Shown: piece by piece, positions 16,135-43,089 of the stretch
Position numbering within the stretch: the first letter of the stretch is position 1
How the letters are laid out: every line of letters begins with the position of its first letter
DNA from: Actinomycetes bacterium
GTDB lineage: Bacteria > Actinomycetota > CALGFH01
Assembly (NCBI GenBank): GCA_035275125.1
Contig: DATENJ010000477.1
Span: 106 to 64,105 of the forward strand
Length of the DNA stretch: 64,000 bases
Direction: 5' to 3'
Position numbers and translations under genes: made by a program
The notes under the pieces: model-generated
Databases searched by the model: none
What the model saw: only the letters and a program-made list of their open reading frames with translations
Told to the model about the DNA's origin: nothing

Positions 16135-16503
16135 GTGCCTGCCGTGGCCGAAGGCGAGCTTGCCGAGATTGTCAGGAGCTATTACCGGCTGGTGGACACG
16201 AGCGACTTCACTCGAATGCTCGAGTTGTTCGCCGATGACGCTGTCTACCGGCGGCCGGGCTATGCGCCGCTCGTTGGCAAGCCGGCCCTGACCGAGTTCT
16301 ACCTCGGCGTCCGCGTTATCGAGTCCGGCCGACACGAACTGTCCAGCATCCTGGTGCAGGATCGCTCGGCCGCCGTCGAGGGCCAGTTCGCCGGCCAACT
16401 GAAGGACGGCACCAGCGTCCGCCTACAGTTCGCCGACTTCTTCCGGTTCCATGCCGGCCGGATCGTCGAGCGAAGCACCTATTTCGACGCCCCCGCGGTC
16501 TAG
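16135..16503 (+). CDS. SnoaL-like / NTF2-fold protein
   Basis: 122-aa ORF with the ketosteroid-isomerase-like pattern (YYRLVDTSDFTRMLELFADDAVY). Confidence 0.6.
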   Translation: MPAVAEGELAEIVRSYYRLVDTSDFTRMLELFADDAVYRRPGYAPLVGKPALTEFYLGVRVIESGRHELSSILVQDRSAAVEGQFAGQLKDGTSVRLQFADFFRFHAGRIVERSTYFDAPAV

Positions 16504-21674: not shown

Positions 21675-22658
21675 TCACCTCCCAACCTCGCGCAGCTTGT
21701 TGGTCCGGTCGTCCACCCTGACGCAGGCGACCGTATGACCCTCGGACACAGCGCGCGGCTCGGGCCGCTGCGGCAGGCAGTCGGCGCGGACAAGCGGGCA
21801 CCTGGAGGAGAACAGGCACCCGGGGGCGAGCTCGATGGAGCTGGGGATCTCGCCCTCAAGGACCCAGCGGTCGAGGACCGCGGCGGGGTCGGCGGGCAGC
21901 GACGCCGACAGCAGCGCCTGGGTGTAGGGGTGCTGGGGGTCGTGGAAGACCTGGTCGACGGGACCGACCTCCACGAAGGTGCCCCGGTACATGACCGCCA
22001 CCCGGTCGCAGTGGGCGCCGATGGTGAACAGGTCGTGGGAGATCAACAGGAAGGTCAGACCGCGCTCGCGCTTGATCTGGTCGAGCAGCGCCAGGATGCC
22101 GGCTCGGATCGACAGGTCCAGCGAGGAGGTCGGCTCGTCCAGCACCAGGAATCCGGGGTCGGTGGCGATGGCTCTGGCGATCGCGACCCGCTGCGCCTCG
22201 CCGCCGCTCAGCTCCCTGGGAAAGCGGCGCACGTGGCCGGGGTTGAGCTGGACCAGGCCGAGCAGCTCCCGGGCCCGGGCCGTCCGGCCCGCGCGGTCAA
22301 GGCGGGTGTGCAGGCGCAGCGGCTCCTCCAGGATCGCGCCCACCCGCATCCTGGGGTTCAGGGAATCGAAGGGGTCCTGGAAGACGACCTGGGTCCGGGC
22401 CCGCCACGAGCGCAGGTCGCTGCCGGACAGCCCGGCGACGTCGACTCCGTCGAACCGGATCCCGCCACTGGTCGGCTCGACCAGGCGCAGCAGGCACCTG
22501 CCGACGGTGGACTTGCCCGAGCCGCTCTCGCCGACCAGCCCCAGGGTCTCACCCGGCTCGATGCGGAAGGAGACGCCGTTGACCGCGTGGACGAGACCCT
22601 TGCCTCGGCCCGCCGGATAGTGCTTGACGAGGTTGTCGACCACCAGCGCCACGCTCAC
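21675..22658 (-). CDS. ABC transporter ATP-binding protein (oligo/dipeptide DppF/OppF type)
   Basis: Walker A GESGSGKST, LSGGEAQR signature, Walker B LVLDEPTS, and C-terminal oligopeptide-ABC domain; GTGA overlap with the upstream ATPase. Confidence 0.9.
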   Translation of the reverse strand: MSVALVVDNLVKHYPAGRGKGLVHAVNGVSFRIEPGETLGLVGESGSGKSTVGRCLLRLVEPTSGGIRFDGVDVAGLSGSDLRSWRARTQVVFQDPFDSLNPRMRVGAILEEPLRLHTRLDRAGRTARARELLGLVQLNPGHVRRFPRELSGGEAQRVAIARAIATDPGFLVLDEPTSSLDLSIRAGILALLDQIKRERGLTFLLISHDLFTIGAHCDRVAVMYRGTFVEVGPVDQVFHDPQHPYTQALLSASLPADPAAVLDRWVLEGEIPSSIELAPGCLFSSRCPLVRADCLPQRPEPRAVSEGHTVACVRVDDRTNKLREVGR

Positions 22659-23506
22659 CGGCGGCTCCCGGAGTCCATCTGCTGCCCGCGCCCAGGGGCT
22701 GAGGCGATCAGCCGCCGGCTGTACGGATGCTCCGGCTCGGCGAACACCCGGCGCACCGGGCCCTTCTCCACCACGCGCCCGGCCAGCATGATCTCCACCC
22801 GGTCGCAGTAGTGGGCGACGATGCCGAGGTCGTGGGTGACGAACAGGACCGAGGACCCGGTCTGGCGCACCTTGGCCCGCAGCAGGTCCAGGATCTGGGC
22901 CTGGACGGTGACGTCCAGGCCGGTGGTGGGCTCGTCGGCCACCAGCAGCCGGGGCTCGTTGATGGTGGCGATGGCGATCAGGGCCCGCTGGGCCATGCCG
23001 CCGCTGAGCTGGTGGGCGTAGGCCCGGGCGCGGCGCTGGGCGTCTGGGATGCCCATGCGCTCCAGCGCCGCAACCGCCTGCCGCCAGGCCTGCCGCCGGT
23101 CCACCCGGTGGTGGGCCCGGTAGGCGTGCGCGACCTGGTCGCCGATGCGGACCAGCGGGTTGAGCGCGGCGCGCGGGTTCTGGACGACCAGGCCGATCTG
23201 GCCGCCGCGGATCTGCCGCAGCCGCTCCTCCGAGGCACCCAGGACGTCTTCGCCGAGGAACCGCACCTCGCCGCCGTCGATCCTGCCCGGCGCCCGGACC
23301 AGGCCAAGGAGGGCGAGCGCGGCCGTCGACTTCCCGGACCCGCTCTCACCGACCAGGCCGACGAACTCACCCTCGCGGATGGTGAGCGCGAACTCCACGA
23401 CGGCGCTGACGTCGCCGGCGTCCAGTGGGTAGGTGACGTTGAGCCCGCTCGCCTCCAGCACGACCGGCCGTGGCGTCCCGACGCCGTCGTCGGGACTATC
23501 GGCCAT
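22655..23506 (-). CDS. ABC transporter ATP-binding protein (DppD/OppD type)
   Basis: GESGSGKST, LSGGMAQR, LVADEPTTGLD. Confidence 0.9.
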   Translation of the reverse strand: MADSPDDGVGTPRPVVLEASGLNVTYPLDAGDVSAVVEFALTIREGEFVGLVGESGSGKSTAALALLGLVRAPGRIDGGEVRFLGEDVLGASEERLRQIRGGQIGLVVQNPRAALNPLVRIGDQVAHAYRAHHRVDRRQAWRQAVAALERMGIPDAQRRARAYAHQLSGGMAQRALIAIATINEPRLLVADEPTTGLDVTVQAQILDLLRAKVRQTGSSVLFVTHDLGIVAHYCDRVEIMLAGRVVEKGPVRRVFAEPEHPYSRRLIASAPGRGQQMDSGSRR

Positions 23507-24413
23507 AGCGGTCCTCCAGCAGGTTGCCGAACACGGCGTACCCGAAGACCGTCACCGAGATGGCGATGCCGGGGAAGACCGACGGCCACCACTCTCCGAG
23601 GACGATGAGGCTGGCACCGGTTGCGATCATCCCGCCCCATTCCGGCGTCGGGGGCCGCACCCCGGCGCCGATGAAGCTGAGCCCGGCCGTCAGCAGGATC
23701 GCCCAGCCAACCGTCACCGAAGCCTGGATCAGCGACGGCGCCATCGAGTTGCGCAGGACGTGCTTGAGCGCGATCACGATCTCGCGGTGGCCGACGGCGC
23801 GGGCCGCCTCCACGTAGGTCCGCGAGCGCTGGGTGACCACCTGGCTGCGGGTCAGCCGCAGGAAGATCGGCGTGAACAGCACAGCCAGCGTGAGCACGAT
23901 GTTCAGCAGGCTGCGCCCGGTCAGCACGACCAGGATCATGGCCAGGATGAAGACCGGGAACGACTGGAAGACGTCGGAGATGCGGGTGAGGGCCTCCGAG
24001 CTGCCGGTGCGGTAGTAGCCGGCGAGCAGGCCGAGGAACGTCCCGAGCGCCAGCGACAGCGCGGTGGCGGCGAGCCCCACGACCACGTCGACGCGGGGCG
24101 CGCAGACCACTCGGGAGAAGACGTCCAAGCCGGCGGAGTCGGTCCCGAACCAGTGGACCGGCTGGTCCAGTTGGCCGCGGACGGTCGCCAGCAGCAGCCC
24201 CGGGACCCTCGGCAGGCTCGGCGGGGGCTCCGAGACCCGGCCGGTCGGCACCTCCGGGTCGTAGGGGGCCACGACGCCGCCGAACAGGGCCAGCAGGATC
24301 GAGGCGCCCACGATGCAGGTGCCCACAACGGTGAGGGGGTTGTGCCGGACGACCCGCAGCCAGGGTCGCGGCCGGCCGACGTCGGGTGGGAGCTGCGGCT
24401 GCATCGCCGTCAT
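23496..24413 (-). CDS. ABC transporter permease (DppC/OppC type)
   Basis: BPD_transp_1 family with EAA-like loop; start MTAMQ overlaps the upstream permease stop (ATGA). Confidence 0.85.
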   Translation of the reverse strand: MTAMQPQLPPDVGRPRPWLRVVRHNPLTVVGTCIVGASILLALFGGVVAPYDPEVPTGRVSEPPPSLPRVPGLLLATVRGQLDQPVHWFGTDSAGLDVFSRVVCAPRVDVVVGLAATALSLALGTFLGLLAGYYRTGSSEALTRISDVFQSFPVFILAMILVVLTGRSLLNIVLTLAVLFTPIFLRLTRSQVVTQRSRTYVEAARAVGHREIVIALKHVLRNSMAPSLIQASVTVGWAILLTAGLSFIGAGVRPPTPEWGGMIATGASLIVLGEWWPSVFPGIAISVTVFGYAVFGNLLEDRYGR

Positions 24414-25441
24414 TGCGCCACTCGCGGATCCACCAGCGCGTGGATGACGTCGATGGCCAGCAGGGTCAGCAGGGACCCGGCCGTGATGACGAGGATGACC
24501 CCCTGGATGGCGGGGTAGTCCAACGAGAGGACCGACCGCAGCGCGTACTGGCCCAGGCCGCCGAGGGAGAAGACCTGCTCGATCAGGACGGCGCCGCCGA
24601 GCATGTAGCCGTAGAGGATGCCGATCAGCGTCAGCGAGGGCGCGAAGGCGTTGCGGAAGGTGTACATGGCGACGCGGAACGGCGACAGGCCGCAGCTGCG
24701 CGCGTACAGGATGTGGTCCGACGCCAGCACCGCCAGCATGCTCTGGCGGACCATCTTGATGATCGGGCCGGAGAGCACGAACGCGAGCGTCAGCACCGGC
24801 AGCATCAGGTGATGGAGCGCCTCGACGAAGACCGAGCCTCGCCCGGCCAGCAGCGCGTCCAGGGTCAGGAAGCCGGTCACCGTTTCGGGTGGGCTGGTCA
24901 GCGGGTCCAGGCGGCCGAGCGGCGCCGGCGCCAGGCCCCATTCAGAGAAGAACAGGAAGACGAACATCAGCCCCCACCAGAACTCCGGCTGGGCGCCGGC
25001 GAACAGGCTGTAGGTGAACGCGGCCCGGTCCACGAGCCCTCGCGGGCGGAGCGCCGCGACCATGCCGATCGGGACCCCGACCAGGACCGCGACCAGGAAG
25101 CTGTAGGTGATCAGCTCGAGGGTCACGGGCAGGAACTTGCCAATCTCCTGGGCCACCGGCGAGCCGGTCACCCACGAGCTGCCCAGGTCACCTTGCAGGA
25201 TGCCGGATCCCTCGGCCTCGCGGTCCAGCCCCAGGTAGATCCCGAGCTGCCTGGGGATCGACTTGTCCAGATCCAGCGAGGCGCGCGCGTGGGCGATCGC
25301 CTCGGGCGTGGCGTTGAGGCCTACCAGCCGCCCCACCGGGTCGGCGGGGAGGAGCCTGATGAGGAAGAACACGAGCAGGGTGATGCCAGCGAGCTGAACC
25401 ACCGCCACCAGCAGACGGCGCAGCACGTAGGTGGTCAACAT
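24410..25441 (-). CDS. ABC transporter permease (DppB/OppB type)
   Basis: N-terminal MLTTYVLRRLL plus six-TM permease core. Confidence 0.9.
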   Translation of the reverse strand: MLTTYVLRRLLVAVVQLAGITLLVFFLIRLLPADPVGRLVGLNATPEAIAHARASLDLDKSIPRQLGIYLGLDREAEGSGILQGDLGSSWVTGSPVAQEIGKFLPVTLELITYSFLVAVLVGVPIGMVAALRPRGLVDRAAFTYSLFAGAQPEFWWGLMFVFLFFSEWGLAPAPLGRLDPLTSPPETVTGFLTLDALLAGRGSVFVEALHHLMLPVLTLAFVLSGPIIKMVRQSMLAVLASDHILYARSCGLSPFRVAMYTFRNAFAPSLTLIGILYGYMLGGAVLIEQVFSLGGLGQYALRSVLSLDYPAIQGVILVITAGSLLTLLAIDVIHALVDPRVAQ

Positions 25442-25451
25442 GCCCTGGAAT

Positions 25452-27158
25452 CTAGCTCTCCGCGGGGCTCAGCTCGAACCACCTCAGGGCGTTCTCCGGG
25501 TGCCAGGTGAGCCCGCTGATCCGCTCCGAGAAGGCCCACTGCGTCTTGCGCTCGACGATGGGCACCCAGTTCAGGTCCTTCTGGAGGATCTCCTGGGCCT
25601 CGGCGAGCATCTGCGCCCGCTTCTCCTGATCGGTCTCGACGTTGGCCGCGGCGGTCAGCTCGTCGACCCTGGCGTTGGAGTAGTTGGTGTTGTTGGCCGG
25701 GGCGCCGGCCTTGGAGGAGATCTGGGCGTTGAAGAGCGCGTAGCCGGCGTCGATCAGGACCGGCTTCTCCTGGTCGTCCAGCGCGAAGGGAAGGTCCTTC
25801 TTGACGAACAGCCGGTCCACGAACTGGCTGTTGGGCACGGGGTTGAGCTGCGCCGGGATGCCCGCCTCACGCAGCGCCGCCTGGACCATGGTGGCGATCG
25901 GCCCCAGCGTCGACTCCTTCTCGGCGACATAGGTGAGCTGGAAGGAGCCGCCGAACCGGTCCAGGCCACGGCCCTCGGGGTAGCCGGCCTCGGCGAGCAG
26001 CGCCTTGGCACGGGCCGGATCGGAGGCGTACTGGGTGGCCGGCTTCACGTACCCGGGGAAGGAGGAGGGGACGTGGCCCTCCCATTTCTTCGCCTGGTTG
26101 AAGTAGCCGTCGTTGACGATCGGGTCGTACGGGATGAGGGTGGCGATCGCCTGGCGGACCTTGGGGTTGTCGAAGGGCTTGGATTTGAAGTTCATGTGCA
26201 GGAAGAGGTTCTCGTTGCCGATCACGCCGCCGACCTTCAGCCCTTGTGCCTGCTTGGCCGCCTCGATCTCCTTGGGGGTGAGGTTCTCGGCGACCTGCGC
26301 GGCTCCCGACCTGAGCGCCGCCAGACGGTTGGCGCTCTCGGGCACCTTGCGGTAGACGATCCGCGAGATGGGTGGAGCGCCGCGGTAGTACCTGGGGTTG
26401 GCCTTGACCACGAACTCCGATCCCTTGTCCCATCTCTCCAGGCAGTAGGGGCCGAATCCGGGAAGGTTGACGGTGTCGTTGTACTTGTGGCTCCAGGGGT
26501 CGTCCGGCGTGGCGTGCTTCTCCATCGTCTCCTTGTCCAGGATCCCGGTGGCGAACGTCGCCATCACGGGCAGGAACAGCTGGCTCGGTGCCGACTGTCG
26601 GACCTTGACCGTGTAGTCGTCCACCTTGGTGACCTCGTCACCGAGCTCGCGCTTGGACTCGTCAGTGATCACGTCGGGGGTGAACGCGTCGACCGCGGCC
26701 ACGTTGAACTCGAACCAGGAGACTGCGATCGCCCCGCTCACCGACTTGGCCCGGGCAAAGGTATAGAGCACGTCGTCGGCGTTGAAGCTGGCCCCCTCGC
26801 AGCCGACCACCCCCTGGCGCAGGTGGAAGGTCCAGGTGAGGGTGGCCGGGTCGTAGTCCCAGGACTCCGCCAGCCGCCCTTCGAACTTCTTGAAGTCCAG
26901 CAGCTGCACGCCGTCCTCGTTGACCTCCCCTCGGGAATTGTCCACGAGATTCTCAACCAGATTGACAATCCCCTCCTGGGCGGAAGGGGCGGGGACCGAG
27001 GGCCCGTCATAGTCGAGGCCGGCCGGGATGTCATCCGACAAGATCGTGACCTGCGCGACCTCTTGGTTCTCGGAGTCGGCGGAATCGCCTTGCTCACACC
27101 CGGCGACCGAGACGAGCATCGCCAGGACGGCCGCCCAAAGACCATACCTCCGGATCAT
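25452..27158 (-). CDS. ABC transporter substrate-binding lipoprotein, family 5 - SBP2
   Basis: Signal peptide and lipobox VAGCEQ; RBS GAGGAAGGGA; first gene of the operon SBP2-B-C-D-F-formamidase. Confidence 0.9.
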   Translation of the reverse strand: MIRRYGLWAAVLAMLVSVAGCEQGDSADSENQEVAQVTILSDDIPAGLDYDGPSVPAPSAQEGIVNLVENLVDNSRGEVNEDGVQLLDFKKFEGRLAESWDYDPATLTWTFHLRQGVVGCEGASFNADDVLYTFARAKSVSGAIAVSWFEFNVAAVDAFTPDVITDESKRELGDEVTKVDDYTVKVRQSAPSQLFLPVMATFATGILDKETMEKHATPDDPWSHKYNDTVNLPGFGPYCLERWDKGSEFVVKANPRYYRGAPPISRIVYRKVPESANRLAALRSGAAQVAENLTPKEIEAAKQAQGLKVGGVIGNENLFLHMNFKSKPFDNPKVRQAIATLIPYDPIVNDGYFNQAKKWEGHVPSSFPGYVKPATQYASDPARAKALLAEAGYPEGRGLDRFGGSFQLTYVAEKESTLGPIATMVQAALREAGIPAQLNPVPNSQFVDRLFVKKDLPFALDDQEKPVLIDAGYALFNAQISSKAGAPANNTNYSNARVDELTAAANVETDQEKRAQMLAEAQEILQKDLNWVPIVERKTQWAFSERISGLTWHPENALRWFELSPAES

Positions 27159-27437
27159 GCCCGTTCCCTTCCTCGGGGGAGATCGACCAGTTGCCCAGTG
27201 CTGATCGCCGTCAACTCTGATGCTTGCTCGGTTCGTCGTCAAGTCCCTAACTACGCTTCTGGCAACGGCCCTCCAACGATGCTGGGGCAGCCGCCTCGAA
27301 GCAGTCGTGACCTGCAGGTTCTGCGAGTGGTAGGCTGGCGCCGGTCGTCGGCCGGGCGCTGTCGCTAAGTACCTTGTGACGGTGTCGCGGTCGACGGTCG
27401 GACGCCGTCTGGCAGCGCACCGGGAGCGATAGATCGC

Positions 27438-28286
27438 ATGGCAGAGGACGTTGTGCTCGAGCAACTCCAGCGCCTCGGGATGACGAGCTACGAGGCGAAG
27501 GCGTATGTGGCCCTGATCGCCGCCGGGGTGCCGCTAAATGGCTACGAGGTCGCCAAGCGATCGAAGGTCCCTCGGAGCACGGTCTACGAGACGCTTGGAA
27601 AGCTGGTCGGGCGGGGTGCCGCCTTCGAGGTCAACGTCAACGGGGCGACCGCGTACCTCCCCCTGCCGGTCGAGTCCCTGCTCACGGGCCTGGAGACCGA
27701 GTTCGAGACGGCCATCCGTCGGCTCAAGGCGGCGCTGCCGGCGGTCATCTCCCCACCCAAAGCGCAGGTCGTTCACCACCTGAATGGCGCGGAGATCGTC
27801 CTCGACCGCGCCACAACGATGATCGAGAACGCCACCGAGGACCTGTACCTGGCGATGTGGGACGAGGAGACCCGCAAGCTGGCCCCAGCGATCCAGGCCG
27901 CCGAGGACCGGCGGCTCGCGGTCTTCCTGCTGGTGTTCGGCGGTGAGAACGGCAAGATCCCGCATGCGTTCCCGCACCGCCTGCTGACTGCCCCGGACGC
28001 CCTGGAGCCGGTCAGCCGCCGGCTCCTGCTCGTTGTGGCTGACCGCGCCAGCGTCCTCGTCGGCAGCGCGGTCGGCGACGACATGTGGGCGATGCACAGC
28101 GAGGACCCGGCGGTCAGCCTGGTCGCGATCGAGTACGTCAGGCACGACATCGCGCTGCAGCAGCTCGCGGGGCGCATAGGCGTCGAGGAGATCCAGAAGA
28201 TCTGGCAGACCGACCCGGAGCTGCAGCGCCTGGCCGCACAGCGCGGCCTTCCCGGATCGGGCCCCACCAGGGGGAATCGGCCGTAG
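27438..28286 (+). CDS. TrmB-family transcriptional regulator
   Basis: N-terminal TrmB winged HTH (GMTSYEAKAYVALIAAGVPLNGYEVAKRSKVPRSTVYETL); divergent from the ABC operon. Confidence 0.8.
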   Translation: MAEDVVLEQLQRLGMTSYEAKAYVALIAAGVPLNGYEVAKRSKVPRSTVYETLGKLVGRGAAFEVNVNGATAYLPLPVESLLTGLETEFETAIRRLKAALPAVISPPKAQVVHHLNGAEIVLDRATTMIENATEDLYLAMWDEETRKLAPAIQAAEDRRLAVFLLVFGGENGKIPHAFPHRLLTAPDALEPVSRRLLLVVADRASVLVGSAVGDDMWAMHSEDPAVSLVAIEYVRHDIALQQLAGRIGVEEIQKIWQTDPELQRLAAQRGLPGSGPTRGNRP

Positions 28287-28306
28287 CGTCCCTTCTGAAC
28301 CCGGAG

Positions 28307-28549
28307 GTGGTCCCAACGAGCGAGCCTACCGTCGAAACCCTCGAAGTTCTCGCCCGGGAACTGGGTATCTCGGTCGCCCGGGAGCGACTCGCACGGGCCG
28401 CCGAGGCGCATGCCCGCCTGCGCCCGATGCTGCGGCAGTTCCGGGAGGTGAAGTTCGACTACCTGGACGGGGTTCAGCCCGCGCATGCCAGGCGCTGGAT
28501 CGAGAACGGAGGGCGCTCGGTTCCACACGCACCGCAAGCGCCGTCGTGA
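28307..28549 (+). CDS. small AtzG-like (DUF4089-like) protein, putative partner of the downstream amidase; start codon uncertain
   Basis: ~80-aa helical ORF (LEVLARELGISVARERLARAAEAHARLRPMLRQFREVKFDYLDGVQPAHARRW). Its TGA stop overlaps the amidase GTG start (GTGA). Confidence 0.5.
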   Translation: MVPTSEPTVETLEVLARELGISVARERLARAAEAHARLRPMLRQFREVKFDYLDGVQPAHARRWIENGGRSVPHAPQAPS

Positions 28550-29970
28550 CCGGGCTCGCCGACCTCGGAGCCGGCGAGCTGCTGGAGCTCTACCGCCGGC
28601 GGGAGGCCTCGCCTGAGGAGGTCGCCGAGGCCTGTGCCGCGCGGATCGAGCAGCTGGAGCCAGCGCTCAACGCCGTCACGACGCGCTGCCCTGAGGTCTG
28701 GTCCAGGCAGGCGGCGGAGGCAACCCGCCGGTGGCGCAGCGGCGAGGCCCGGCCTCTGGAGGGTGTCCCCTACGGCGTCAAGGACCTGATCCACACCGCC
28801 GGCGTGCGCACCACGGGCGGGTCCCGCCGTTACCGTGACTACGTTCCCGAGACAGGCGCCGAGGCCGTCGACCGGCTCGAGCGGGCTGGCGGCGTGATGA
28901 TGGCCAAGCTCCACACGTTCGAGTTCGCCAGGGGCGATGACAGCTTCCTCGGGCCCACGCGCAACCCCTGGGACCTGGAGCGGACCGCCGGCGCCTCCTC
29001 CACTGGCGCGGGCGCGGTCCTGGCGGCTCGGCAGCTGCCGCTGGCGCTGGCGACCGACACCGGCGGCTCCATCCGGGTCCCCGCCACCTTCTGCGGCGTC
29101 ACCGGCCTGAAGCCAACCTTCGGGCTCGTTCCCCGGACCGGCGTGATGCCCCAATCCTGGACCTTGGACCACGTCGGGCCGATGGGCCGCTCGGTCGCCG
29201 ACGTCGCCCGAATGCTGACCGCGATCGCCGGCTACGACCCGGCGGACCCCGAGTCGATCCGGACACCGCGCCGCGACTTCGTCGAGGGACTCGACCGAGG
29301 GGTCGCCGGCCTCCGCCTTGGCATCCCTCGCGACTGGTTCTTCGACGTCATCGACCCGGAGGCACTGCAAGCGACGCAACGGGCCGCCTCCCTGCTGGCC
29401 GGGCAGGGCGCGGACGTGGTCGAGGTCGACCTTCCCCACGCCCACCTCTCCGACGTCATCGGTGCCCTCATCATCTACGCGGAGTTCGCCGCCCTCCACA
29501 CCGACGACCTCGACCGACTGGAAGAGTTCGGGACGCGCTGGACACAGCAGGTACTGGTGGACTCCCACTTCGTCGGCGCCGCCGACTACCTCAGGGCCCT
29601 GCGGGCGCGGCACCTGATCCAGCGCGACCTCGAGCAGGCCTTCGAGCAGGCGGACGTGCTCCTGGTTCCTGGCACGGTGGGGGTGGCGCCTCGACTGGAG
29701 GACCTCGCCTTCTCGGTCGGGGACGCCGTCCGGGAATGGGACCAGCACGTGGCACGGATGACACTGCTGTTCAACCTTGCCGGCGTGCCCGCCCTGGCGC
29801 TCCCGGCGGGCTTCAGTAGCGGTGGGCTGCCATTGGGGATCCAGGTCGCCGCCCGACCGTTCGACGAGGCGACCTGCCTCCGGGTAGGCCACACCCTGCA
29901 GCGATGCACCACCTACCACCTGGCGGTTCCGCCCCTCGTCTCGGGCCAGGACGGTATGCGGTCGGGCTAG
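28546..29970 (+). CDS. amidase-signature family amidase (AtzE-like 1-carboxybiuret hydrolase-type architecture)
   Basis: GASSTGAGAVLAA, GTDTGGSIRVPAT, and GVKDLI; ~60 % identical to the amidase at 19273-20676. Confidence 0.85.
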   Translation: MTGLADLGAGELLELYRRREASPEEVAEACAARIEQLEPALNAVTTRCPEVWSRQAAEATRRWRSGEARPLEGVPYGVKDLIHTAGVRTTGGSRRYRDYVPETGAEAVDRLERAGGVMMAKLHTFEFARGDDSFLGPTRNPWDLERTAGASSTGAGAVLAARQLPLALATDTGGSIRVPATFCGVTGLKPTFGLVPRTGVMPQSWTLDHVGPMGRSVADVARMLTAIAGYDPADPESIRTPRRDFVEGLDRGVAGLRLGIPRDWFFDVIDPEALQATQRAASLLAGQGADVVEVDLPHAHLSDVIGALIIYAEFAALHTDDLDRLEEFGTRWTQQVLVDSHFVGAADYLRALRARHLIQRDLEQAFEQADVLLVPGTVGVAPRLEDLAFSVGDAVREWDQHVARMTLLFNLAGVPALALPAGFSSGGLPLGIQVAARPFDEATCLRVGHTLQRCTTYHLAVPPLVSGQDGMRSG

Positions 29971-31001
29971 ATGAGGTCGCCTCTGGTTCGCGGGTCGATG
30001 AGGAACTGCAGGACGTCCATGAACACATAGACCGTGAGCGCGAAGATGGCCACGAACATGACGCAGCCGGCGACCGCCAGGTAGTCCGAGTTCACCACCG
30101 ACTCGACCGCGAACTGGCCCAGCCCGCCCCAGGAGAAGACCGTCTCGACCAGCACTGCCGCGCTGATCAGGTAGCCGTACACCAGGCCGGACAGGGTGAT
30201 CACCGGTAGCAGTGCGTTCCGCAGGGCGCCACGGTTGATCCGCCGGACCGGCATCCCGCAGGCGCGCGCGTACCGCACATAGTCCGAGTCCAGCGCCTCC
30301 ATGGTCTGGGTCCGGGTCATCTTCAGCAATGGCGCGGCGTAGACGAACGCGAGCGTGACCCCGGGCAGGATCAGGTGCCCGAAGGCGGAGCGGAACGCGG
30401 CCCAGTTCCCCGTGAGCACCGAGTCCAGGGTGTAGACCCCGGTGATCGTGGTGGGCGCCCCGATCAGCACGTCGATGCGACCGAGGGGAGCCGGCGCGAT
30501 CCCGAGGGTGACGAAGAACACCAGGATCAGCATCAGGCCCCACCAGAACTCGGGCAGCGCCCCCGCGACCATCCCGTAGACGAACGGGATGCGCTTGAAC
30601 AGGCGCCCGCGCGACACCGCCGAGAGGATGCCGAGCGGGACGGCGACCGCGATGGCGATGACGAACGCGAAGGTGATGAGCTCGAAGGTGGCCGTGAAAC
30701 GGCGCAGCACCTCGTCCAGCACCGGCTTGCTGGTGAAGTACGAGCGTCCGAGGTCCCCTTGCAGCACGTTGCCGAGGTACTTGACGTAGCGGACGTGGAT
30801 CGGCTGGTCGAGGCCGAGGCTCTGCACTAGGGCCGCTCTGGTCTCGTCGGAGGCGAGCCCGCCCGCCAGCAGGTAGGTGGGGTCGCCGGGGAGAAGCTGG
30901 ATCAGGACGAAGACGATCGTCACGATGCCCCAGACCTGGACCAGCAGGATGCCGAGGCGGCGCAGCACGAAGCGCAGCTTCCAGCCTATCGGGACGACCA
31001 C
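29967..31001 (-). CDS. ABC transporter permease (DppB type) - distal gene of the third ABC operon
   Basis: GTG start with GGGAGGTGG upstream; typical DppB N-terminus KLRFVLRRLGILLVQ. Confidence 0.8.
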   Translation of the reverse strand: MVVPIGWKLRFVLRRLGILLVQVWGIVTIVFVLIQLLPGDPTYLLAGGLASDETRAALVQSLGLDQPIHVRYVKYLGNVLQGDLGRSYFTSKPVLDEVLRRFTATFELITFAFVIAIAVAVPLGILSAVSRGRLFKRIPFVYGMVAGALPEFWWGLMLILVFFVTLGIAPAPLGRIDVLIGAPTTITGVYTLDSVLTGNWAAFRSAFGHLILPGVTLAFVYAAPLLKMTRTQTMEALDSDYVRYARACGMPVRRINRGALRNALLPVITLSGLVYGYLISAAVLVETVFSWGGLGQFAVESVVNSDYLAVAGCVMFVAIFALTVYVFMDVLQFLIDPRTRGDLI

Positions 31002-33016
31002 GACGCCACCTCCCGTGTGGACTGGCAGACGAGGTTGCCGTGCTCGTCGGCGTGTGCCGTCCAACCCTCGAGCAGCAGGAAGCTGGAGTCGACCTCCTCG
31101 ATCACGCACGGGTGGTCGATCCTCGTCCCAGGCTCGAGGCGATCCCGGTCGTACACCGGGACCTCGCGGTCGAGGAAGGCGATCCTCCGTGACCCCTTGG
31201 GGACGGGTTCCGCCCCGGAGTGGCGGCTAGACGGGGGCTGCAGCCGCAGCGTGGGCACGGTCCCAACGGCGGTCACCCGCACGTTGACCACCTCCGCCGG
31301 GTCCCCCAGCCGCGTCCCGTAGCGCAGCTCGTGCAGCCGCTCGAACTCGCGGTAGACCGAGGCCGGGTCGAGCGGCGAGCCCTCCGCGACCGGCACCGGG
31401 ACCTCGGTCGACTGCCCGACGTAGCGAACGTCGAGCAGCCGCTCGAACTCCACCTCGCCGACCGACGCCTCCTCGCCCTGGAGGAAGGCGCTGGCGGCCT
31501 GGCCGAGCTCCTGGAACTGCTTGCCCAGGTCGGCCGCGGAGACGGCCGTGAGCAGGCTGAGCAGCGTCTGGCTGGCGGTGTTCCTGAGATCCGCCGTGAG
31601 GAGGCCGAACGCTGACAGCACGCTCTGGTTCGGCGGCACCAGCACGCGGCGGATGCCGACCTCCTCGGCGACCGCCACCGCGAACTGACCGCCCGCGCCC
31701 CCGTAGCAGATCAGCGTGAAGTCGCGCGGGTCGATCCCCCGTTTCACGGTCGCCTCGAGGATGGCCTGCGCCATGTTCGCGTTGAGCAGCCGGAAGACAC
31801 CGAGGGCGGCCTGCTCGACGCTCACGCCGAAGTGCGCCGCGATCGGTTCGAGCGCCTCGCGGGAGCGCCCTGGGACCACGCGCAACCGGCCGCCGAGGAA
31901 GTTGCCCGGGTCGAGGATGCCGAGCACGAGGTTGGCGTCGGTGGCGGTCGGCGCCGTGCCGCCCCGGTCGTAGCAGGCGGGGCCGGGGTCCGCGCCGGCG
32001 CTCTGGGGGCCAACGCGGAGGGTCCCTCCCTCGTCGACCCAGGCGATGCTGCCACCGCCCGCGCCGACCGAGGCCACGTCGATGCCCTGGGTGCGGGCCG
32101 GGATCCCCCACTCGACCTCGACCTCGTCGCGCATCTCGGGCTCGCCGTCCCTGAGCACGCAGATGTCGCAGCTCGTCCCGCCGACGTCCATCGTGATGAG
32201 GTCGCCGATCCCGCTCCTCCGCCCGATGAACTGGCTGGCCAGGACGCCCGCCGCCGGGCCCGAGGCGATCAGGATGATGGGGTGCGCCCTCGCCTCCCCC
32301 GACGGGACGATCCCGCCGCCGGAATGCATGTACCTCACCGGCACCCCGAGGACCCCGGCCAGGCGTTCGATGTACCCACGGGTCCGTGGCATCGCATAGG
32401 CGTTCAGCACCGTCGTGCTCGTCCGCTGGTACTCGCGGATGCGGGGGTCGACGTCGGACGAGAGCGAGATCGCCAGCTCCGCTGAGATCGAGCGGGCGAT
32501 CTGCCCGATCGCGCGCTCGTGCTCGCCGTTGGCATAGGCGTTGAACAGGCACACGGCGAGCGCCTCGACGCCGTCGGCGAGCAGCGCCCGGACCGCGTCC
32601 TCGACGCCGCGCTCGTCCAGCGGCTCGAGCACGTTGCCGTCCATGTCGATCCGCTCGTCGACCTCTCTGACCAGGTACCTGGGCACGAACGGTCGGGGCT
32701 TGTCCCACTGGAGGTTGTACAGCTGGTTCCGGTAGACGCGGCCGATCTCCAGCACGTCACGGAACCCCCGCGTCGTGAGCAGTCCCACCTTGGCCCCGGT
32801 TCTGGTGAGGACCAGGTTGGTGACGAGGGTGGTCGCGTGCATGAACGAGGAGATGCGGCCGAAGTCGACCCCGCCCTGGCGGCACGCCTCGAGCAGGCCC
32901 TCCTCGGGGGCCGAGGGAACGGTCCGGACCTTGGTCCGGCGCAGGTCTCCCGAGGCCTCGTCGTAGACGACCAGGTCGGTGAACGTCCCCCCGATGTCGA
33001 CCCCCACCCGCTGCAT
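30986..33016 (-). CDS. hydantoinase/oxoprolinase family, A subunit (HyuA-like)
   Basis: MQRVGVDIGGTFTDLV N-terminus and Hydantoinase_A family along the full length; RBS GGGAGGAA. Confidence 0.9.
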   Translation of the reverse strand: MQRVGVDIGGTFTDLVVYDEASGDLRRTKVRTVPSAPEEGLLEACRQGGVDFGRISSFMHATTLVTNLVLTRTGAKVGLLTTRGFRDVLEIGRVYRNQLYNLQWDKPRPFVPRYLVREVDERIDMDGNVLEPLDERGVEDAVRALLADGVEALAVCLFNAYANGEHERAIGQIARSISAELAISLSSDVDPRIREYQRTSTTVLNAYAMPRTRGYIERLAGVLGVPVRYMHSGGGIVPSGEARAHPIILIASGPAAGVLASQFIGRRSGIGDLITMDVGGTSCDICVLRDGEPEMRDEVEVEWGIPARTQGIDVASVGAGGGSIAWVDEGGTLRVGPQSAGADPGPACYDRGGTAPTATDANLVLGILDPGNFLGGRLRVVPGRSREALEPIAAHFGVSVEQAALGVFRLLNANMAQAILEATVKRGIDPRDFTLICYGGAGGQFAVAVAEEVGIRRVLVPPNQSVLSAFGLLTADLRNTASQTLLSLLTAVSAADLGKQFQELGQAASAFLQGEEASVGEVEFERLLDVRYVGQSTEVPVPVAEGSPLDPASVYREFERLHELRYGTRLGDPAEVVNVRVTAVGTVPTLRLQPPSSRHSGAEPVPKGSRRIAFLDREVPVYDRDRLEPGTRIDHPCVIEEVDSSFLLLEGWTAHADEHGNLVCQSTREVASWSSR

Positions 33017-33039
33017 GCCGTTCCTCCCCGACGCCGTGG

Positions 33040-34389
33040 TCACCGCAGCTCGTCGCGGTGCGCCTGCAGGAACCGCGTGATGGTCGAGATCGTGTGCTCG
33101 ATGTCCTCGTCGCTGTGCGCGGCCGAGATGTAGCCCTTGTTCGTCTTGATGGGCAGGACGAAGACGTTGTTGTTGAGGAGGGTGCGCCGGAAGGCGACGT
33201 CCTTGGGATGCCCGCCGCGGACCGACACCAGCTGGATGATGTCCCTGAAGGAGCGCACGTTGCGGGTGAAGTACAGGCACCATGCCGAGCCGAACTGCGC
33301 GAAGCTGGCGTCGATGCCGAGCTCGTCGATCACCGCCCGGATCTCCTTGGCCATCCACTCCCCCTGACGGAACAGCCGGGCATGGACCTGCTCGTCCCGC
33401 AGGATCCTGATGGTCGTCAGCGCCGCGGTGACGCCGAGGAGATGCCCCATGAAGGTCCCGGAGATGAACACCGGGCCCTCGGGGCTGAACAGCGACATGA
33501 CGTCGCGCCTGCCGGCGACCGCGCTGATCGGATAGCCGTTCGCCATCGCCTTGCCGAACACGGCCAGGTCCGGCGTCACCCCGAGCAGGCTCTGGGCGCC
33601 GCCGAGGCTGTGCCGGAAGCCGGTGATGATCTCGTCGAAGATCAGGAGGATCCCGAGCTCGTCGCAGAGGGCGCGCAGCAGCACCAGGAAGTCCTTGTCA
33701 ACGATGAGGCAGCCGGCGCTGTGGCAGACGGGCTCGATCACCACCGCCGCCAGGCGGTCGGCCTCGCGCCTGATGAGGCGCTCGGTCGCCTCCGGGTCGT
33801 TGAACGGCGCCACCACGATCTGGTCGATCGTCTCCTGGAGGGAACCGACCGACGCGGGAACCGTGGCCGGCGCGTCGGCGGGCCCGGCCTCCTCCGGCCG
33901 GGGCTTGACGCTGGCCGCCAGGTAGTCGTGCCACCCGTGGTACCCGCCCTCGAACTTGAGCAGCTTCGTCCTTCCGGTGTAGGCGCGGGCGAGGCGGACG
34001 GCGTTGTAGACCGCGTCGGATCCGCCGCCACCGCACAGCGCGGTCATGTCGGCGCAGGGGACCAGCTCGGTGAACAGGCGGGCGAGCTCGACCTCTTTCG
34101 GGTGGGGCGCGGTGAACAGCACCCCGTCGTTGGTCAGGGTGTCGATCACCGCGGCGCGGACCCTGGGGTCGTTGTGGCCCAGGAGGGCGGGCCCGGCCGC
34201 CCCCCAGTAGTCGATGAACTCGTTGTCGTCGACGTCCCAGATGCGGGAGCCCCCGGCCCGGCGGATGAACAGCGGGTACGGCTCGTACCAACGCCCGTCG
34301 CCCTGGACGCCGCCGGGGGAGCTGGCACGGGCCGTCTCCAGCAGCCGCCGCGACCGCTCGGTGGGGATCGTGAGCTCAACGTCGATCAT
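33040..34389 (-). CDS. class III pyridoxal-phosphate aminotransferase (omega-aminotransferase / GSA-aminomutase-like)
   Basis: AT-III fold with PLP lysine in VFGKAMANGYP; start MIDVEL overlaps the HyuB stop by 14 nt. Confidence 0.85.
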   Translation of the reverse strand: MIDVELTIPTERSRRLLETARASSPGGVQGDGRWYEPYPLFIRRAGGSRIWDVDDNEFIDYWGAAGPALLGHNDPRVRAAVIDTLTNDGVLFTAPHPKEVELARLFTELVPCADMTALCGGGGSDAVYNAVRLARAYTGRTKLLKFEGGYHGWHDYLAASVKPRPEEAGPADAPATVPASVGSLQETIDQIVVAPFNDPEATERLIRREADRLAAVVIEPVCHSAGCLIVDKDFLVLLRALCDELGILLIFDEIITGFRHSLGGAQSLLGVTPDLAVFGKAMANGYPISAVAGRRDVMSLFSPEGPVFISGTFMGHLLGVTAALTTIRILRDEQVHARLFRQGEWMAKEIRAVIDELGIDASFAQFGSAWCLYFTRNVRSFRDIIQLVSVRGGHPKDVAFRRTLLNNNVFVLPIKTNKGYISAAHSDEDIEHTISTITRFLQAHRDELR

Positions 34390-36181
34390 CGCTCGCCTCC
34401 AGTTCCTGGTCGTCGGCTCGGCCGGCCCGGTCCCGCTGCTGGTCCCGACGGAGCGCCTCGGTCTCGGCGACCGCCACCCGCCCGTCCCGGTCGAGCCGCA
34501 CGCCGTAGTCGTCGCCGGCGCTGGCCCTCGACACGTAGCCGTCGCGGACGTCCCGTTCGACCAGGGACGGGTCCCGCCGCAGAGGGTCCCCGTAGCCGCC
34601 TCCTCCCCCCTCGGTGACCTCGAGCACGTCGCCGGCCTGGAGCGGCAGGAGGGAGAACTTGCTCGGCGATCTGGTGTCGAAGAGCCGCTGGATGTCGTGG
34701 CGCTGGCCGTCCCGCACGACGCTGAAGTCGTTGGGCGTCCCGGCGTGCCCTCCCTCCAGCCCCCACGGCGGGATGACGTGGCGGTCGGCGCAGGCGGTGA
34801 CCAGCGCCGGCCGGAGCAGCTGGAGCCGGCGCGTGGCTCCGAGGCCGCCCCGGTGGGCACCCGGTCCCGCGGAGTCGGTGTTCATGCCGTAGCCGAGGAA
34901 GCGGACCGGGTAGCGGGTCTCCCAGACCTCCATGGACTCGTTCTTGGCGTTCGCGATGATCGGCCAGTCGACGTTGTTGCCGTCCTTGTTCGGCCGGGCG
35001 CCGGTCCCGCCCGGCTCGAACAGGTACATGAGGAACTCCTCGTTGGTCTCGGGATCCACGCCGGAGGCGGTCAGGTTGTTGCCGGTGCCGAGCGACCCCG
35101 CGGGGACACGGTCGGGCGCCATCCCACGGAGCGCCCTGAGGATCGCCTCGCACGTCTTGATGCAGGTGTCGGCCCAGCTGAAGGTCGGCGCCGGGTAGAC
35201 CGGCCGCACCAGCGTCCCCGGCGTCGCCCGGATCTCGATGAGGTCGATGACCCCGGAGTTCATGTCGATCATGGGGTCGATCACCGCCGCCAGGGCGACG
35301 AAGCAGGCCGACCGGGTGCCGCTGAAGGTGCAGTTGACCGGGCCAAGGACCTGGCGGTCGGTCCCGGTCAGGTCCACCACCAGCGACGACCCGTCCTTGA
35401 TGACCTTCACGCGGATGGTGTGGGGCCCGCCGCCGTGGCCGTCGTCCTCGATGACCTCGGTGGCCGCGTACTCGCCGTCCGGGAAGTCCTCGAGAAACCT
35501 GGTGAAGCGCCGCCGCGAGTACTCCAGCGCGGCCTCCATGCCGAGCAGGAGGCGGTCGAGCCCGTACTTGCCGGCGAGCTCACGGACCCGGCGCTCGGCG
35601 ACGATGTTGGAGGCGAGCTGCGCCTGGAGGTCTCCCCAGCACTGCCGGGCCATGCGGACGTTCTTGAGGATGAACTCCTGGATCTCGCGGTTGAGCTCGC
35701 CGGCGCGGTACAGCTTCGCCGGCGGGATGATCAGGCCCTCCTGCACCACGTGGTCGACCGTCCCCGACCAGCCGCCCGGCGACATCCCGCCGATGTCCGA
35801 CCAGTGGCCGCGGTTCACGGCGAAGCCCACGTGACGGTCGGCCACGAACATCGGGCAGGCCACCACCACGTCGGCCTGATGGTTCGCGCCGTCGTACGGG
35901 TCGTTGAACACGATGACGTCGCCGGGCTCGAAGGACGGGTAGGCCCTGATGATCGTCTCGACGGCGTCGACGAGCGCGCCGGCATGTCCGGGGATCCCGT
36001 AGGCCTGGGCGATCATCCGGCCCCTGGTGTCGAACAGCCCGCAGGTGAAGTCCTCGCCCTCGCTGAAGCACGTCGAGTAGGCCGTCCGGGTGGTGGTGAG
36101 CACCATCTCGTGCATGATCGAGAGCAGGTAGCTCCGGATGATCTCGGCGGTGAACGGGTCGAGCTGCGGTGGCTGGCTCAC
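34376..36181 (-). CDS. hydantoinase/oxoprolinase family, B subunit (HyuB-like)
   Basis: Hydantoinase_B family (DPFTAEIIRSYLLSIMHEM...); GTG start with GAGGAG, overlapping the ATPase stop (GTGA). Confidence 0.9.
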   Translation of the reverse strand: MSQPPQLDPFTAEIIRSYLLSIMHEMVLTTTRTAYSTCFSEGEDFTCGLFDTRGRMIAQAYGIPGHAGALVDAVETIIRAYPSFEPGDVIVFNDPYDGANHQADVVVACPMFVADRHVGFAVNRGHWSDIGGMSPGGWSGTVDHVVQEGLIIPPAKLYRAGELNREIQEFILKNVRMARQCWGDLQAQLASNIVAERRVRELAGKYGLDRLLLGMEAALEYSRRRFTRFLEDFPDGEYAATEVIEDDGHGGGPHTIRVKVIKDGSSLVVDLTGTDRQVLGPVNCTFSGTRSACFVALAAVIDPMIDMNSGVIDLIEIRATPGTLVRPVYPAPTFSWADTCIKTCEAILRALRGMAPDRVPAGSLGTGNNLTASGVDPETNEEFLMYLFEPGGTGARPNKDGNNVDWPIIANAKNESMEVWETRYPVRFLGYGMNTDSAGPGAHRGGLGATRRLQLLRPALVTACADRHVIPPWGLEGGHAGTPNDFSVVRDGQRHDIQRLFDTRSPSKFSLLPLQAGDVLEVTEGGGGGYGDPLRRDPSLVERDVRDGYVSRASAGDDYGVRLDRDGRVAVAETEALRRDQQRDRAGRADDQELEASDDRR

Positions 36182-37143
36182 GACGCGCTCCTCTCGGACG
36201 GGGCGACCCTGATGCAGCGCACCTCGTGGGCTGCGGCGGTCTCGACCAGTCGCGGCGCGACGTGCGAGCACTCGTCGATGGCGATCGGGCAGCGCGAGTG
36301 GAGGAAGCAGCCCGACGGGAGGTTGATCGGGCTCGGGATCTCGCCCCTGAGGACCAGTGGGGAGCGCGCCGCGTGGGGGTCCGGGGTGAGCACGGCCGAC
36401 AGCAGCGAGCCGCTGTAGGGGTGCAGGGGGCCGGAGAAGATCCGGTCCGCGGACCCTCGTTCCACGATCTGGCCCAGGTACATCACCGCGACCTCGTGGC
36501 TGATGTGCCGGACCGCGGTGAGGTCGTGGGAGATGAACACGTACGCGACCCCGGTGGACCGCTGGAGCTGCATCAGAAGCTCGATGATCTCCGCCCGGGC
36601 GGTCGCGTCCAGCAGCGAGGTCGGCTCGTCGAGCACGATCAGGCGGGGCTCGGTCACCATCGCCCGTGCGATCCCGATCCGCTGGAGCAGCCCCGAGCTG
36701 AGCTCGTGCGGGTAGCGGGCGAGGTCGTCGGGATCGACGCCGAGCGACGTCGCCACCTCCACCACCCGGCGCACCCGGTCGAGCTCGCTCAGGTGGCGCA
36801 GGAGGCGGAGCGGCTCCTTGACCGCCTCGCCGACCGGCCGTCTCGGGTCGAGGGCGTCGTAGGGCTCCTGGAAGACGATCTGCACCTTGGCCCGCAGGCT
36901 TCGCTGCCTGCCGCGGAAGTCCGCGAGGTCCCGGCCCTCGAAGGTCACCGTCCCCGAGGTCGGACGGAGCAGCCCGAGGATGCAGCGCCCGACCGTGGTC
37001 TTGCCCGACCCGCTCTCCCCCACCAGGCCGAGCGTCTTCCCCTCGCCGACGGTGAACGAGACGCCGTTCACGGCCCAGACGCGGCCACGCGACCGGGGCG
37101 CGGGGAACGTCTTGACTAGGTCGTCGACTCGAAGGAGCTCCAC
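36178..37143 (-). CDS. ABC transporter ATP-binding protein (DppF type)
   Basis: GESGSGKTT, LSSGLLQR, LIVLDEPTS. Confidence 0.85.
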   Translation of the reverse strand: MELLRVDDLVKTFPAPRSRGRVWAVNGVSFTVGEGKTLGLVGESGSGKTTVGRCILGLLRPTSGTVTFEGRDLADFRGRQRSLRAKVQIVFQEPYDALDPRRPVGEAVKEPLRLLRHLSELDRVRRVVEVATSLGVDPDDLARYPHELSSGLLQRIGIARAMVTEPRLIVLDEPTSLLDATARAEIIELLMQLQRSTGVAYVFISHDLTAVRHISHEVAVMYLGQIVERGSADRIFSGPLHPYSGSLLSAVLTPDPHAARSPLVLRGEIPSPINLPSGCFLHSRCPIAIDECSHVAPRLVETAAAHEVRCIRVAPSERSAS

Positions 37144-38114
37144 TCCCCCACCCTTTCCTGATGGTGGCAGCTCACGTCGCGGTCGGGCTCGACCTCCAGG
37201 AGCGCCGGCGCCGCCTCCCGGCACGTCTGGTCGGCGAGCGGGCATCGCGTCGAGTAGGCGCACCCGTCGCGGGCGGGTGGTGGGACGGACCGTCGCTGGG
37301 CGGCCGCCGGCAACGCCTCCCCGGTCCCGAACCGCGACGAGTGGAGGAGGCGGATGGTGTACGGGTGCCGCGGCTCGTCGAACACGCGCTCCACCGGGCC
37401 GACCTCGACGATCCTGCCGGCGTACAGCACCGCGATCCGGTCGCAGTAGTTCGCGGCGATCCCCAGGTCCCGGGTGATCAGGAGGGCCGATGCACCCAGC
37501 TCCTCGACCTGCTGGCGCAGGAGGTCGAGGATCTGGGTCTGGATGGTGACGTCCAGCCCCATGGTGGGCTCGTCCGCCACCAGGACCTTCGGCTCGTTGA
37601 TGGTCGCCATGGCGATCAGGACCCGCTGGGCCATCCCGCCGCTGAGCTCGTGCGGGTAGGCGCGGAGCCGTTCCTCCGGGTCGGGAATCGCGACCTTCGT
37701 CAGCATCTCCAGGGCTCGCCGGCGGGCGTCCTTCAGCGAGACGTCGTGGTGCCCGCGGTAGACCTCCGCGACCTGGTCCCCGACCCGGAGCAGGGGGTTG
37801 AGGTGCGCCCGGGCGTTCTGCACGATCAGCGCCAGGTCGCGCCCCCGGATGGTGCGCAGCTCCTCCTCGCGCCTGGACAGCAGGTCCCGGCCCTCAAGCA
37901 CCACCCGGCCGGCGACGATCTGTCCGGGGGACGGCAACAGCCCGAGGACGCTCCAGGCGACGATCGACTTCCCCGACCCGCTCTCCCCGATGAGCCCGAG
38001 GGTCTCGCCGGGTCGCAGCTGCAGCGTGACGCCGTCGAGGGCCCGGGCCCGACGGCCGCGGGCCTGGAACTCGACGCTCAGGTCCTGGATCTCGAGGATC
38101 GCCTCCCGCGACAC
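37116..38114 (-). CDS. ABC transporter ATP-binding protein (DppD type)
   Basis: GESGSGKSI, LSGGMAQR, LVADEPTMGLD. Confidence 0.9.
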   Translation of the reverse strand: MSREAILEIQDLSVEFQARGRRARALDGVTLQLRPGETLGLIGESGSGKSIVAWSVLGLLPSPGQIVAGRVVLEGRDLLSRREEELRTIRGRDLALIVQNARAHLNPLLRVGDQVAEVYRGHHDVSLKDARRRALEMLTKVAIPDPEERLRAYPHELSGGMAQRVLIAMATINEPKVLVADEPTMGLDVTIQTQILDLLRQQVEELGASALLITRDLGIAANYCDRIAVLYAGRIVEVGPVERVFDEPRHPYTIRLLHSSRFGTGEALPAAAQRRSVPPPARDGCAYSTRCPLADQTCREAAPALLEVEPDRDVSCHHQERVGEWSSFESTT

Positions 38115-39933: not shown

Positions 39934-39976
39934 GTTCGCTCCCTCCCTTGCGTCGACCGACCATCCACCGTCCCGC

Positions 39977-41392: not shown

Positions 41393-41437
41393 CGCTGCTC
41401 ATCCCTTCGGGTTCGGGAGCGCTGCGTCTCCGGTGGG

Positions 41438-43069: not shown

Positions 43070-43089
43070 GCGATGACCCCTTCCTCGGA

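Follow-up and report, generated by a model that had tools for sequence, protein, structure and literature searches.

A small gene overlapping an amidase gene in an Actinomycetes genome probably encodes a divergent GatC/AtzG-type subunit

Does the short interval in front of an amidase-signature gene in an Actinomycetes genome hold a further gene and, if so, is the product of that gene a subunit of the amidase? The question is raised by a 64,000-nucleotide (nt) stretch of DNA from a metagenome-assembled genome (MAG) of an Actinomycetes bacterium, the whole of which is referred to here as the window. Within it, an interval of 260 nt lies between a gene encoding a TrmB-family transcriptional regulator and a gene encoding an amidase-signature enzyme of 474 amino acids (aa). 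A sequence-only reading had pointed to a small open reading frame (ORF) in this interval and had likened it to AtzG, and the amidase to AtzE. Our analysis makes it likely that the small protein and the amidase represent a divergent, uncurated variant of the GatC/AtzG-plus-amidase pairing and that, by analogy to those systems, they would probably form a two-subunit enzyme.

Reading of the sequence places the beginning of an 80-codon frame at the GTG at 28307 and its TGA stop at 28547–28549 (small ORF, 28307–28549, + strand). The amidase gene (28546–29970, +; HKQ01472.1) opens with the GTG at 28546–28548 and has three bases in common with the small-ORF stop, resulting in a joint GTGA (28546–28549, +) that is a signature of translational coupling. 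Upstream, the TrmB-family gene (27438–28286, +; HKQ01471.1; Pfam TrmB 56 bits, Regulator_TrmB 28 bits) ends with a stop codon at 28284–28286, 20 nt before the small ORF. The overlap, the neighbouring regulator and the length of about 80 codons noted in the sequence-only reading are therefore confirmed, as is, by prediction, the helical character of the product (see below). Scanning of 27200–30300 for Rfam families, sigma-70-like promoters and intrinsic terminators yielded no match that would account for the 260-nt interval. The TrmB, small-ORF and amidase genes look like a single transcription unit, of which the regulator gene is the first.

Several features argue that 28307–28549 is a real protein-coding gene. 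The GC content at codon positions 1/2/3 is 0.78/0.52/0.78 over the entire ORF and about 0.8/0.4–0.5/0.9 in its core (28367–28516), the adjoining genes showing about 0.7/0.45–0.5/0.9. A word-indexed search identified three homologues of 81–88% identity, each of them called as a gene by JGI. Differences with respect to two close relatives are concentrated at the third codon position (5/5/18 and 6/8/14 at positions 1/2/3), and one close relative carries an in-frame insertion of 9 nt. Moreover, a HMMER search of 1.84 billion cluster representatives returned 64 proteins at E ≤ 1e-3, nearly all of 65–100 aa, and across these 64 representatives the family is conserved down to about 30% identity. Its consensus reads ...LRxVxLxFLxxxEPAxAxxWIENGG(R)S, P58 and W64 being invariant and R46, E57 and G69 near-invariant in the family alignment. 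The AlphaFold2 (AF2) model of the small protein has a mean predicted local distance difference test score (pLDDT) of 86.6 and contains helices at residues 9–18, 25–46, 51–54 and 58–66; a distant family member is modelled with the same helix layout (pLDDT 81.5). All named homologues are labelled 'hypothetical protein' and lack a Pfam domain. NCBI's annotation of the source MAG does not include the small gene, the regulator and the amidase bearing consecutive accessions, and the exact small-protein sequence was not found in a collection of 15 billion proteins; the gene is thus unannotated in the source record.

A longer version of 154 codons starting at 28085, present in the program-made ORF list, was rejected, since its upstream part overlaps the TrmB gene and lacks a coding GC pattern: codon-position GC of the long version is 0.84/0.60/0.65, with periodicity lost upstream and a third-position GC content (GC3) of 0.65. 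The antisense ORFs 28474–30543 and 27773–28537 are regarded as GC-rich artefacts.

The exact start of the small gene is less certain. A Shine-Dalgarno-like stretch, GGAGGTGGTC (28303–28312, +), is an almost perfect complement of the 3' end of 16S rRNA, and it abuts and overlaps the GTG at 28307. With such zero spacing, the initiation codon is uncertain by a few codons; initiation elsewhere, or reinitiation following the TrmB stop, are alternatives to a start at 28307. Two of the close relatives, L001 and L006 (loci are designated by L numbers), retain the stretch as GGAGGTGAT(T/C), and GGAGG-type ribosome-binding sites precede most of the homologous small genes at metagenomic loci. The N-terminal eight residues of the small protein are unstructured in the AF2 model.

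The small gene is closely tied to the amidase gene. Metagenome contigs were scanned with the back-translated C-terminal motif EP-x5-WIENGG, and 27 loci were returned, 20 of which encode true family members (E ≤ 1e-18 with the family hidden Markov model, HMM). In all 20, the small gene is directly followed by a gene encoding an amidase 46–59% identical to that of the window. Three more distant members, with 32–37% identity to the window protein, likewise precede an amidase gene, with overlaps of 4–8 nt. Thus, the small gene lies directly before a homologous amidase gene at 23 of 23 diverged metagenomic loci with readable downstream sequence, and the arrangement is kept at 26 of 26 when three close relatives are included. 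A stop/start overlap of the form RTGA is found at 21 of the 23 loci examined for it, which argues for translational coupling; as the co-translation put forward in the sequence-only reading would have it, the small gene is tightly and, to all appearance, translationally coupled to the amidase gene. The close relatives L001–L006 share the layout of the window, consisting of a divergent SBP_bac_5 ATP-binding cassette (ABC) transporter operon, a TrmB gene, the small ORF and the amidase gene with a 4-nt overlap. The small gene and the amidase gene are a conserved two-gene module. Up to now, the small-protein family comes from one Actinomycetes MAG and soil-type metagenomes, and a tblastn search of plasmids gave no match to the small ORF.

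Evidence for a relationship of the small protein to AtzG and GatC comes from profile comparisons. Authentic atzG and atzE were taken from pADP-1, and a diverse AtzG-like/DUF4089/HpxX set was composed of 18 sequences whose genes precede those of AtzE-family amidases on plasmids from 14 genera. Against this set, hhalign gave a probability of 75–79% (P = 1.7e-5 to 2.5e-5; score 30.0 over 53 columns), the best run reaching 78.7% with P = 1.7e-5. Family residues 10–64 are aligned with AtzG residues 8–60, with the landmarks 'Gl-x-L' and 'PL...E(P)A' in register. As controls, reversed profiles scored 16.4 and 17.5, 200 column shuffles had a mean of 8.3 and a maximum of 14.1, and 200 seven-column block shuffles had a mean of 15.1 (standard deviation 3.0) and a maximum of 25.0, so that the score of the real comparison was reached by none of the 200. 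In a comparison with five GatC sequences from solved structures, the family scored 22.4 (P = 1.3e-3; block-shuffle null 11.9 ± 2.1, maximum 18.5). This equals or slightly exceeds the 21.0 obtained when a bona fide AtzG-like alignment is compared to GatC. The GatC alignment spans the N-terminal half only (GatC residues 1–49 of 100). A Foldseek search of the PDB with the small-protein model placed GatF, GATC and GatC in the top three positions, with scores that do not attain significance. The profile evidence may be called moderately strong and the structural evidence no more than supportive; the gene architecture is fully concordant with AtzG/GatC pairings. Taken as a whole, these lines of evidence are best explained by remote homology to the GatC/AtzG class, to which we assign a rather high probability.

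A number of results weigh against this assignment. At E ≤ 10, the small ORF has no match to PF13318 (AtzG-like, DUF4089), to PF02686 (GatC) or to any NCBIfam model, and PF13318 is matched by just one of 65 family members (E = 1.1e-3). Nor was there a PDB sequence match of the small ORF to AtzG or GatC; its matches to designed toroid repeat proteins and to DnaB were discarded as low-complexity helical matches. When close AtzG orthologues alone were used, hhalign gave a probability of 10% (P = 0.003), and the 79% obtained with the diverse set is of moderate strength, suggestive and short of conclusive. The C-terminal WIENGG motif lacks a counterpart in AtzG or GatC. Finally, amidases of the same clade are encoded without a partner gene in the window (19273–20676) and at a metagenomic locus (L023), so that the small subunit may be non-obligatory. 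The proposal that the small ORF is AtzG-like is made likely by profile similarity and architecture and not by membership of PF13318. The sequence-only reading had named an HMM search against DUF4089/AtzG among the checks on its proposal and the absence of a DUF4089/GatC-like fold prediction among the grounds for giving it up; taken by itself, the empty HMM search would have wrongly rejected the small ORF. A literature search on GatC-like small subunits of other amidases returned nothing relevant.

The partner enzyme was characterized in the same manner. It matches Pfam Amidase (PF01425) with 349 bits over the full-length model and has an intact catalytic triad, K79 (VKD), S151 (GASSTG) and S175 (GGSIRVPA), aligned with the motifs of AtzE at 38% identity. 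Its best sequence relatives in the PDB are GatA (4wj3_A, 259 bits) and AtzE (6c62_A, 233 bits). On the AtzE families it scores 303.3 bits (NF006631, cut-off 461) and 288.7 bits (TIGR02715, cut-off 425.75), on PRK06169 302 bits (cut-off 506) and on GatA TIGR00132 294.9 bits (cut-off 481.1); the corresponding values of authentic AtzE for the two AtzE models are 668 and 771. These values, all below cut-off, place the amidase in the GatA/AtzE neighbourhood, outside both curated families. The same holds for the partner amidases of distant loci and for the window paralogue. By the curated cut-off (303 vs 461), the enzyme described as AtzE-like in the sequence-only reading is not a member of the AtzE family, its score on GatA and PRK06169 being equal. 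We regard the small protein and its partner amidases as a separate, uncurated lineage that is covered neither by the Pfam models for AtzG-like proteins and GatC nor by the NCBIfam models for AtzE and GatA. In the partner amidases of L020, L021, L025 and L033, the C-terminus is extended by about 25 conserved residues that end in ...IEKPIVTATKDSIW (VTATKDSIW); this extension is absent from the window amidase, from AtzE and from the L029 enzyme.

The pair can be set beside three known components. AtzG (PF13318, formerly DUF4089, including HpxX; the small subunit in 6C62) is non-catalytic and an obligate partner of AtzE, which is insoluble without it (PMC6219798). Like the small protein, AtzG is helical, non-enzymatic-looking and about 60–80 aa long. 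AtzG-like genes are, as here, located directly upstream of a GatA-like amidase gene, usually with a 4-nt overlap; such an overlap is also the norm in plasmid DUF4089/HpxX-AtzE pairs. Besides the landmarks Gl-x-L...PL...E(P)A shared over 53 columns, both have ABC transporter genes and a gamma-glutamyltransferase (GGT) family gene nearby at some loci. On the other hand, the small family ends in EPAxAxxWIENGG(R)S, as opposed to EPAPVFRP or AEIYRPAPFP in AtzG-like proteins. The small ORF of the window falls below the PF13318 model and its partner below the AtzE cut-offs, and no AtzH/HpxZ gene follows. The family is known here from an Actinomycetes MAG and metagenomes, whereas the published or annotated AtzG examples compared are from Proteobacteria, and the window pair stands under TrmB whereas the AtzG system is under LysR.

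In the case of GatC (PF02686, the scaffold of GatCAB), the N-terminal two-helix segment of the small protein is in register with GatC residues 1–49, and both genes lie upstream of a GatA-like gene. In contrast to GatC, the small protein lacks the C-terminal half that contacts GatB and a PF02686 match; the window has no gatB near the pair, the amidase is below the GatA cut-off and the context is catabolic, not translational. With the AtzE family (NF006631/TIGR02715, including AtzE-like proteins of hpx clusters) the window amidase shares the amidase-signature fold and the K-S-S triad. The 38% identity to AtzE extends over the full length, and both enzymes are paired with a small upstream gene; the differences are the scores, 303 bits where the cut-off is 461 and 289 bits where it is 426, and the C-terminal extension of distant members. 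A small gene preceding an AtzE-family amidohydrolase gene on plasmid pNBC550 of Bosea sp. (L050, 308–487) is also labelled 'hypothetical protein', even though its product aligns with DUF4089/AtzG-like proteins, which is another sign that current models under-detect the AtzG-like class.

On this basis, the following scheme can be proposed for the window. The small gene would be co-transcribed with the TrmB and amidase genes, and coupling through the GTGA would yield the small protein and the amidase in matched amounts. By analogy to AtzG-AtzE and GatC-GatA, the small protein would most likely wrap onto the amidase and serve its folding, solubility or oligomeric state. The enzyme, in turn, would probably deamidate a small nitrogen-rich amide or ureide that is imported by a divergent Opp/Dpp-type ABC transporter under TrmB control. 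This transporter operon (21675–27464, −; gene starts approximate) encodes a solute-binding protein (Pfam SBP_bac_5) together with two permeases (BPD_transp_1) and two ATPases (ABC_tran with oligo_HPY), and is probably the uptake system for the substrate of the amidase. We thus infer that a small amide or ureide is taken up and deamidated; the heterotetramer and the 'carboxylated ureide' substrate suggested in the sequence-only reading stand as analogies.

Four other explanations have to be considered. According to the first, the small protein is tied to the amidase without being a homologue or scaffold of the GatC/AtzG kind, acting as a regulator of activity, as a substrate-delivery or transporter adaptor, or as an assembly chaperone that is released afterwards. 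The strict synteny and the overlap demonstrate linkage and are silent on mechanism; the invariant W64 and the WIENGG motif are family-specific, being absent from AtzG and GatC; the pair is embedded in ABC transporter operons at several loci; and the fold-search scores carry no significance. All this is compatible with such roles, which nevertheless appear rather unlikely. Also on the unlikely side, a bolder proposal regards the family as a lineage of 'vestigial transamidosome' subunits that has diverged independently and stands as the third beside GatC and AtzG. In this proposal, the invariant Trp and WIENGG would have a role unlike that of AtzG (completing or gating the active site, or enabling one subunit to serve both paralogous amidases in trans), and soil Actinomycetota would generally use two-subunit amidases, so far overlooked, to scavenge nitrogen from ureides or cyclic amides.

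It is very unlikely that the small ORF encodes a small helix-turn-helix (HTH) DNA-binding protein, that is a second regulator or an antitoxin-like protein with 'LARELGIS' as the turn. Such a protein is hinted at by weak Pfam HTH_3 matches in 4 of 65 members (best E = 0.12) and by a weak PDB sequence match to CopG (E = 1.5), but none of these comes near the threshold. In the model, a second helix of 22 residues takes the place of a compact tri-helical HTH, no HTH proteins are among the top fold matches, the strongest conservation resides in the C-terminal EPA...WIENGG motif and not in the putative HTH, and a TrmB regulator is already encoded directly upstream.

It is highly improbable that the two genes encode the true GatC-GatA of the organism's tRNA-dependent amidotransferase. 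GatA 4wj3_A is indeed the best PDB sequence match of the amidase, the small gene is upstream as in gatC-gatA, and JGI names the cluster of the paralogue 'aspartyl-tRNA(Asn)/glutamyl-tRNA(Gln) amidotransferase subunit A'. However, TIGR00132 assigns 295 bits to the partnered amidase and 312 bits to the paralogue against a cut-off of 481, the JGI name thus probably being an over-annotation. Furthermore, there is no adjacent gatB, the two paralogues lie in an island devoted to catabolism, among genes for transporters, hydantoinases and a formamidase, and the small protein, whose alignment ends at GatC residue 49 of 100, has neither the GatB-binding C-terminal half nor a PF02686 match. Lastly, an open frame that arose by chance in GC-rich DNA between genes or a mere regulatory leader peptide, with which the GC3 of 0.78 (neighbouring genes about 0.9), the lack of a call by the NCBI pipeline and the absence of a properly spaced ribosome-binding site would agree, appears effectively refuted by the 64 representatives, which keep invariant residues while diverging to about 30% identity, the in-frame indel and synonymous-biased substitutions, the high AF2 confidence and the prediction of the ORF by JGI gene callers in every relative.

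If the GatC/AtzG-type pairing holds, it exposes a systematic annotation gap, the gene being absent from the NCBI record of the MAG and its relatives being 'hypothetical protein' entries without a Pfam domain. As a result, the small gene would be left out whenever amidases of this clade are cloned and expressed, and if the AtzG precedent applies, heterologous expression and enzyme mining of these amidases would fail without the co-expressed small gene. The history of GatC and AtzG, in which a translation scaffold is recycled for catabolic amidases, would then reach beyond Proteobacteria and beyond the AtzE family proper. EPAxAxxWIENGG provides a conserved motif on which a new family model can be built. 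The result is of use for annotation and enzyme expression, and it represents a modest extension of the 'vestigial transamidosome' idea, unsurprising in kind.

The window also encodes a paralogous amidase (19273–20676, +; 467 aa; Pfam Amidase 358 bits) that is 60% identical to the partnered enzyme in a gap-free alignment and is thereby closer to it than are the partnered amidases of distant loci (49–53%). It begins 46 nt after a solute-binding-protein gene, and because of this short distance a neighbouring small ORF is lacking; nor does the window, translated in six frames, contain a second copy of the small family. The absence of a partner, remarked upon in the sequence-only reading, is thus borne out with just this 46-nt gap upstream. 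The functional divergence deduced from it does not follow, as a paralogue of 60% identity might use the small subunit in trans. The missing partner may mean functional divergence, independence of the subunit or sharing of the small protein in trans. A comparable situation is seen in L023 (4436–7142, −), an operon of cupin, RraA-like and amidase genes in which the amidase is 49.6% identical to that of the window and has no small ORF, because the RraA gene overlaps the amidase start. The contig of this unpartnered amidase gene also bears a small/amidase pair. Both cases together indicate that more than one lineage has partnered and unpartnered paralogues side by side.

At distant loci, GGT-family and RraA-like genes repeatedly adjoin the small/amidase pair (L020, 9941–14570; L021, 2419–6533; L053, 5140–10075; L055, 3987–8914). 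In these four, the GGT gene precedes or adjoins the pair, often together with genes for a cupin and a GntR/FCD regulator. The association resembles the ggt-atzG-atzE-atzH (hpxWXYZ) clusters of Enterobacteriaceae (PMC6219798); a ggt-associated cluster of the atzG-atzE type is seen in L047. Distant pairs are sometimes situated inside sugar-type ABC operons, with creatininase-family, HpcH-aldolase and SnoaL-like genes nearby. Neither a GGT nor an RraA gene is present in the window.

The small-ORF/amidase unit of the window is part of an island of roughly 30 kb devoted to the catabolism of nitrogen compounds. The island includes a second solute-binding protein plus amidase, a formamidase/acetamidase, hydantoinases A and B, a class-III aminotransferase, an amidohydrolase, a phosphoenolpyruvate (PEP)-mutase-like enzyme, more Opp-type transporters, a GntR/FCD regulator and an M20 peptidase. 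Convergent to the unit, the stretch 30986–43372 (−) encodes hydantoinase/oxoprolinase A and B, the class-III aminotransferase, Opp-type ATPases and permeases, a PEP-mutase/isocitrate-lyase-like protein, the amidohydrolase and another SBP_bac_5 protein. This set looks like a separate system for the utilisation of cyclic amides or hydantoins and is followed by the genes for the GntR/FCD regulator and the M20 peptidase (43186–45297). Further along, four ORFs of 455, 361, 705 and 471 aa (54632–59174, −, and 45766–47181, +) have coding-type GC3 and no Pfam match at E ≤ 1e-5.

Directly downstream of the window amidase there is no AtzH/HpxZ gene (NTF2-like, DUF3225), its place being taken by a convergent ABC permease gene. 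About 1 kb upstream of the solute-binding protein and paralogous amidase genes, a SnoaL-like protein of the NTF2 superfamily is encoded at 16135–16503 (+), and another SnoaL-like/NTF2 protein is encoded downstream of the small/amidase pair in L054 (10290–10811). These SnoaL-like proteins are possible functional analogues of AtzH/HpxZ, which belong to the NTF2 superfamily as well.

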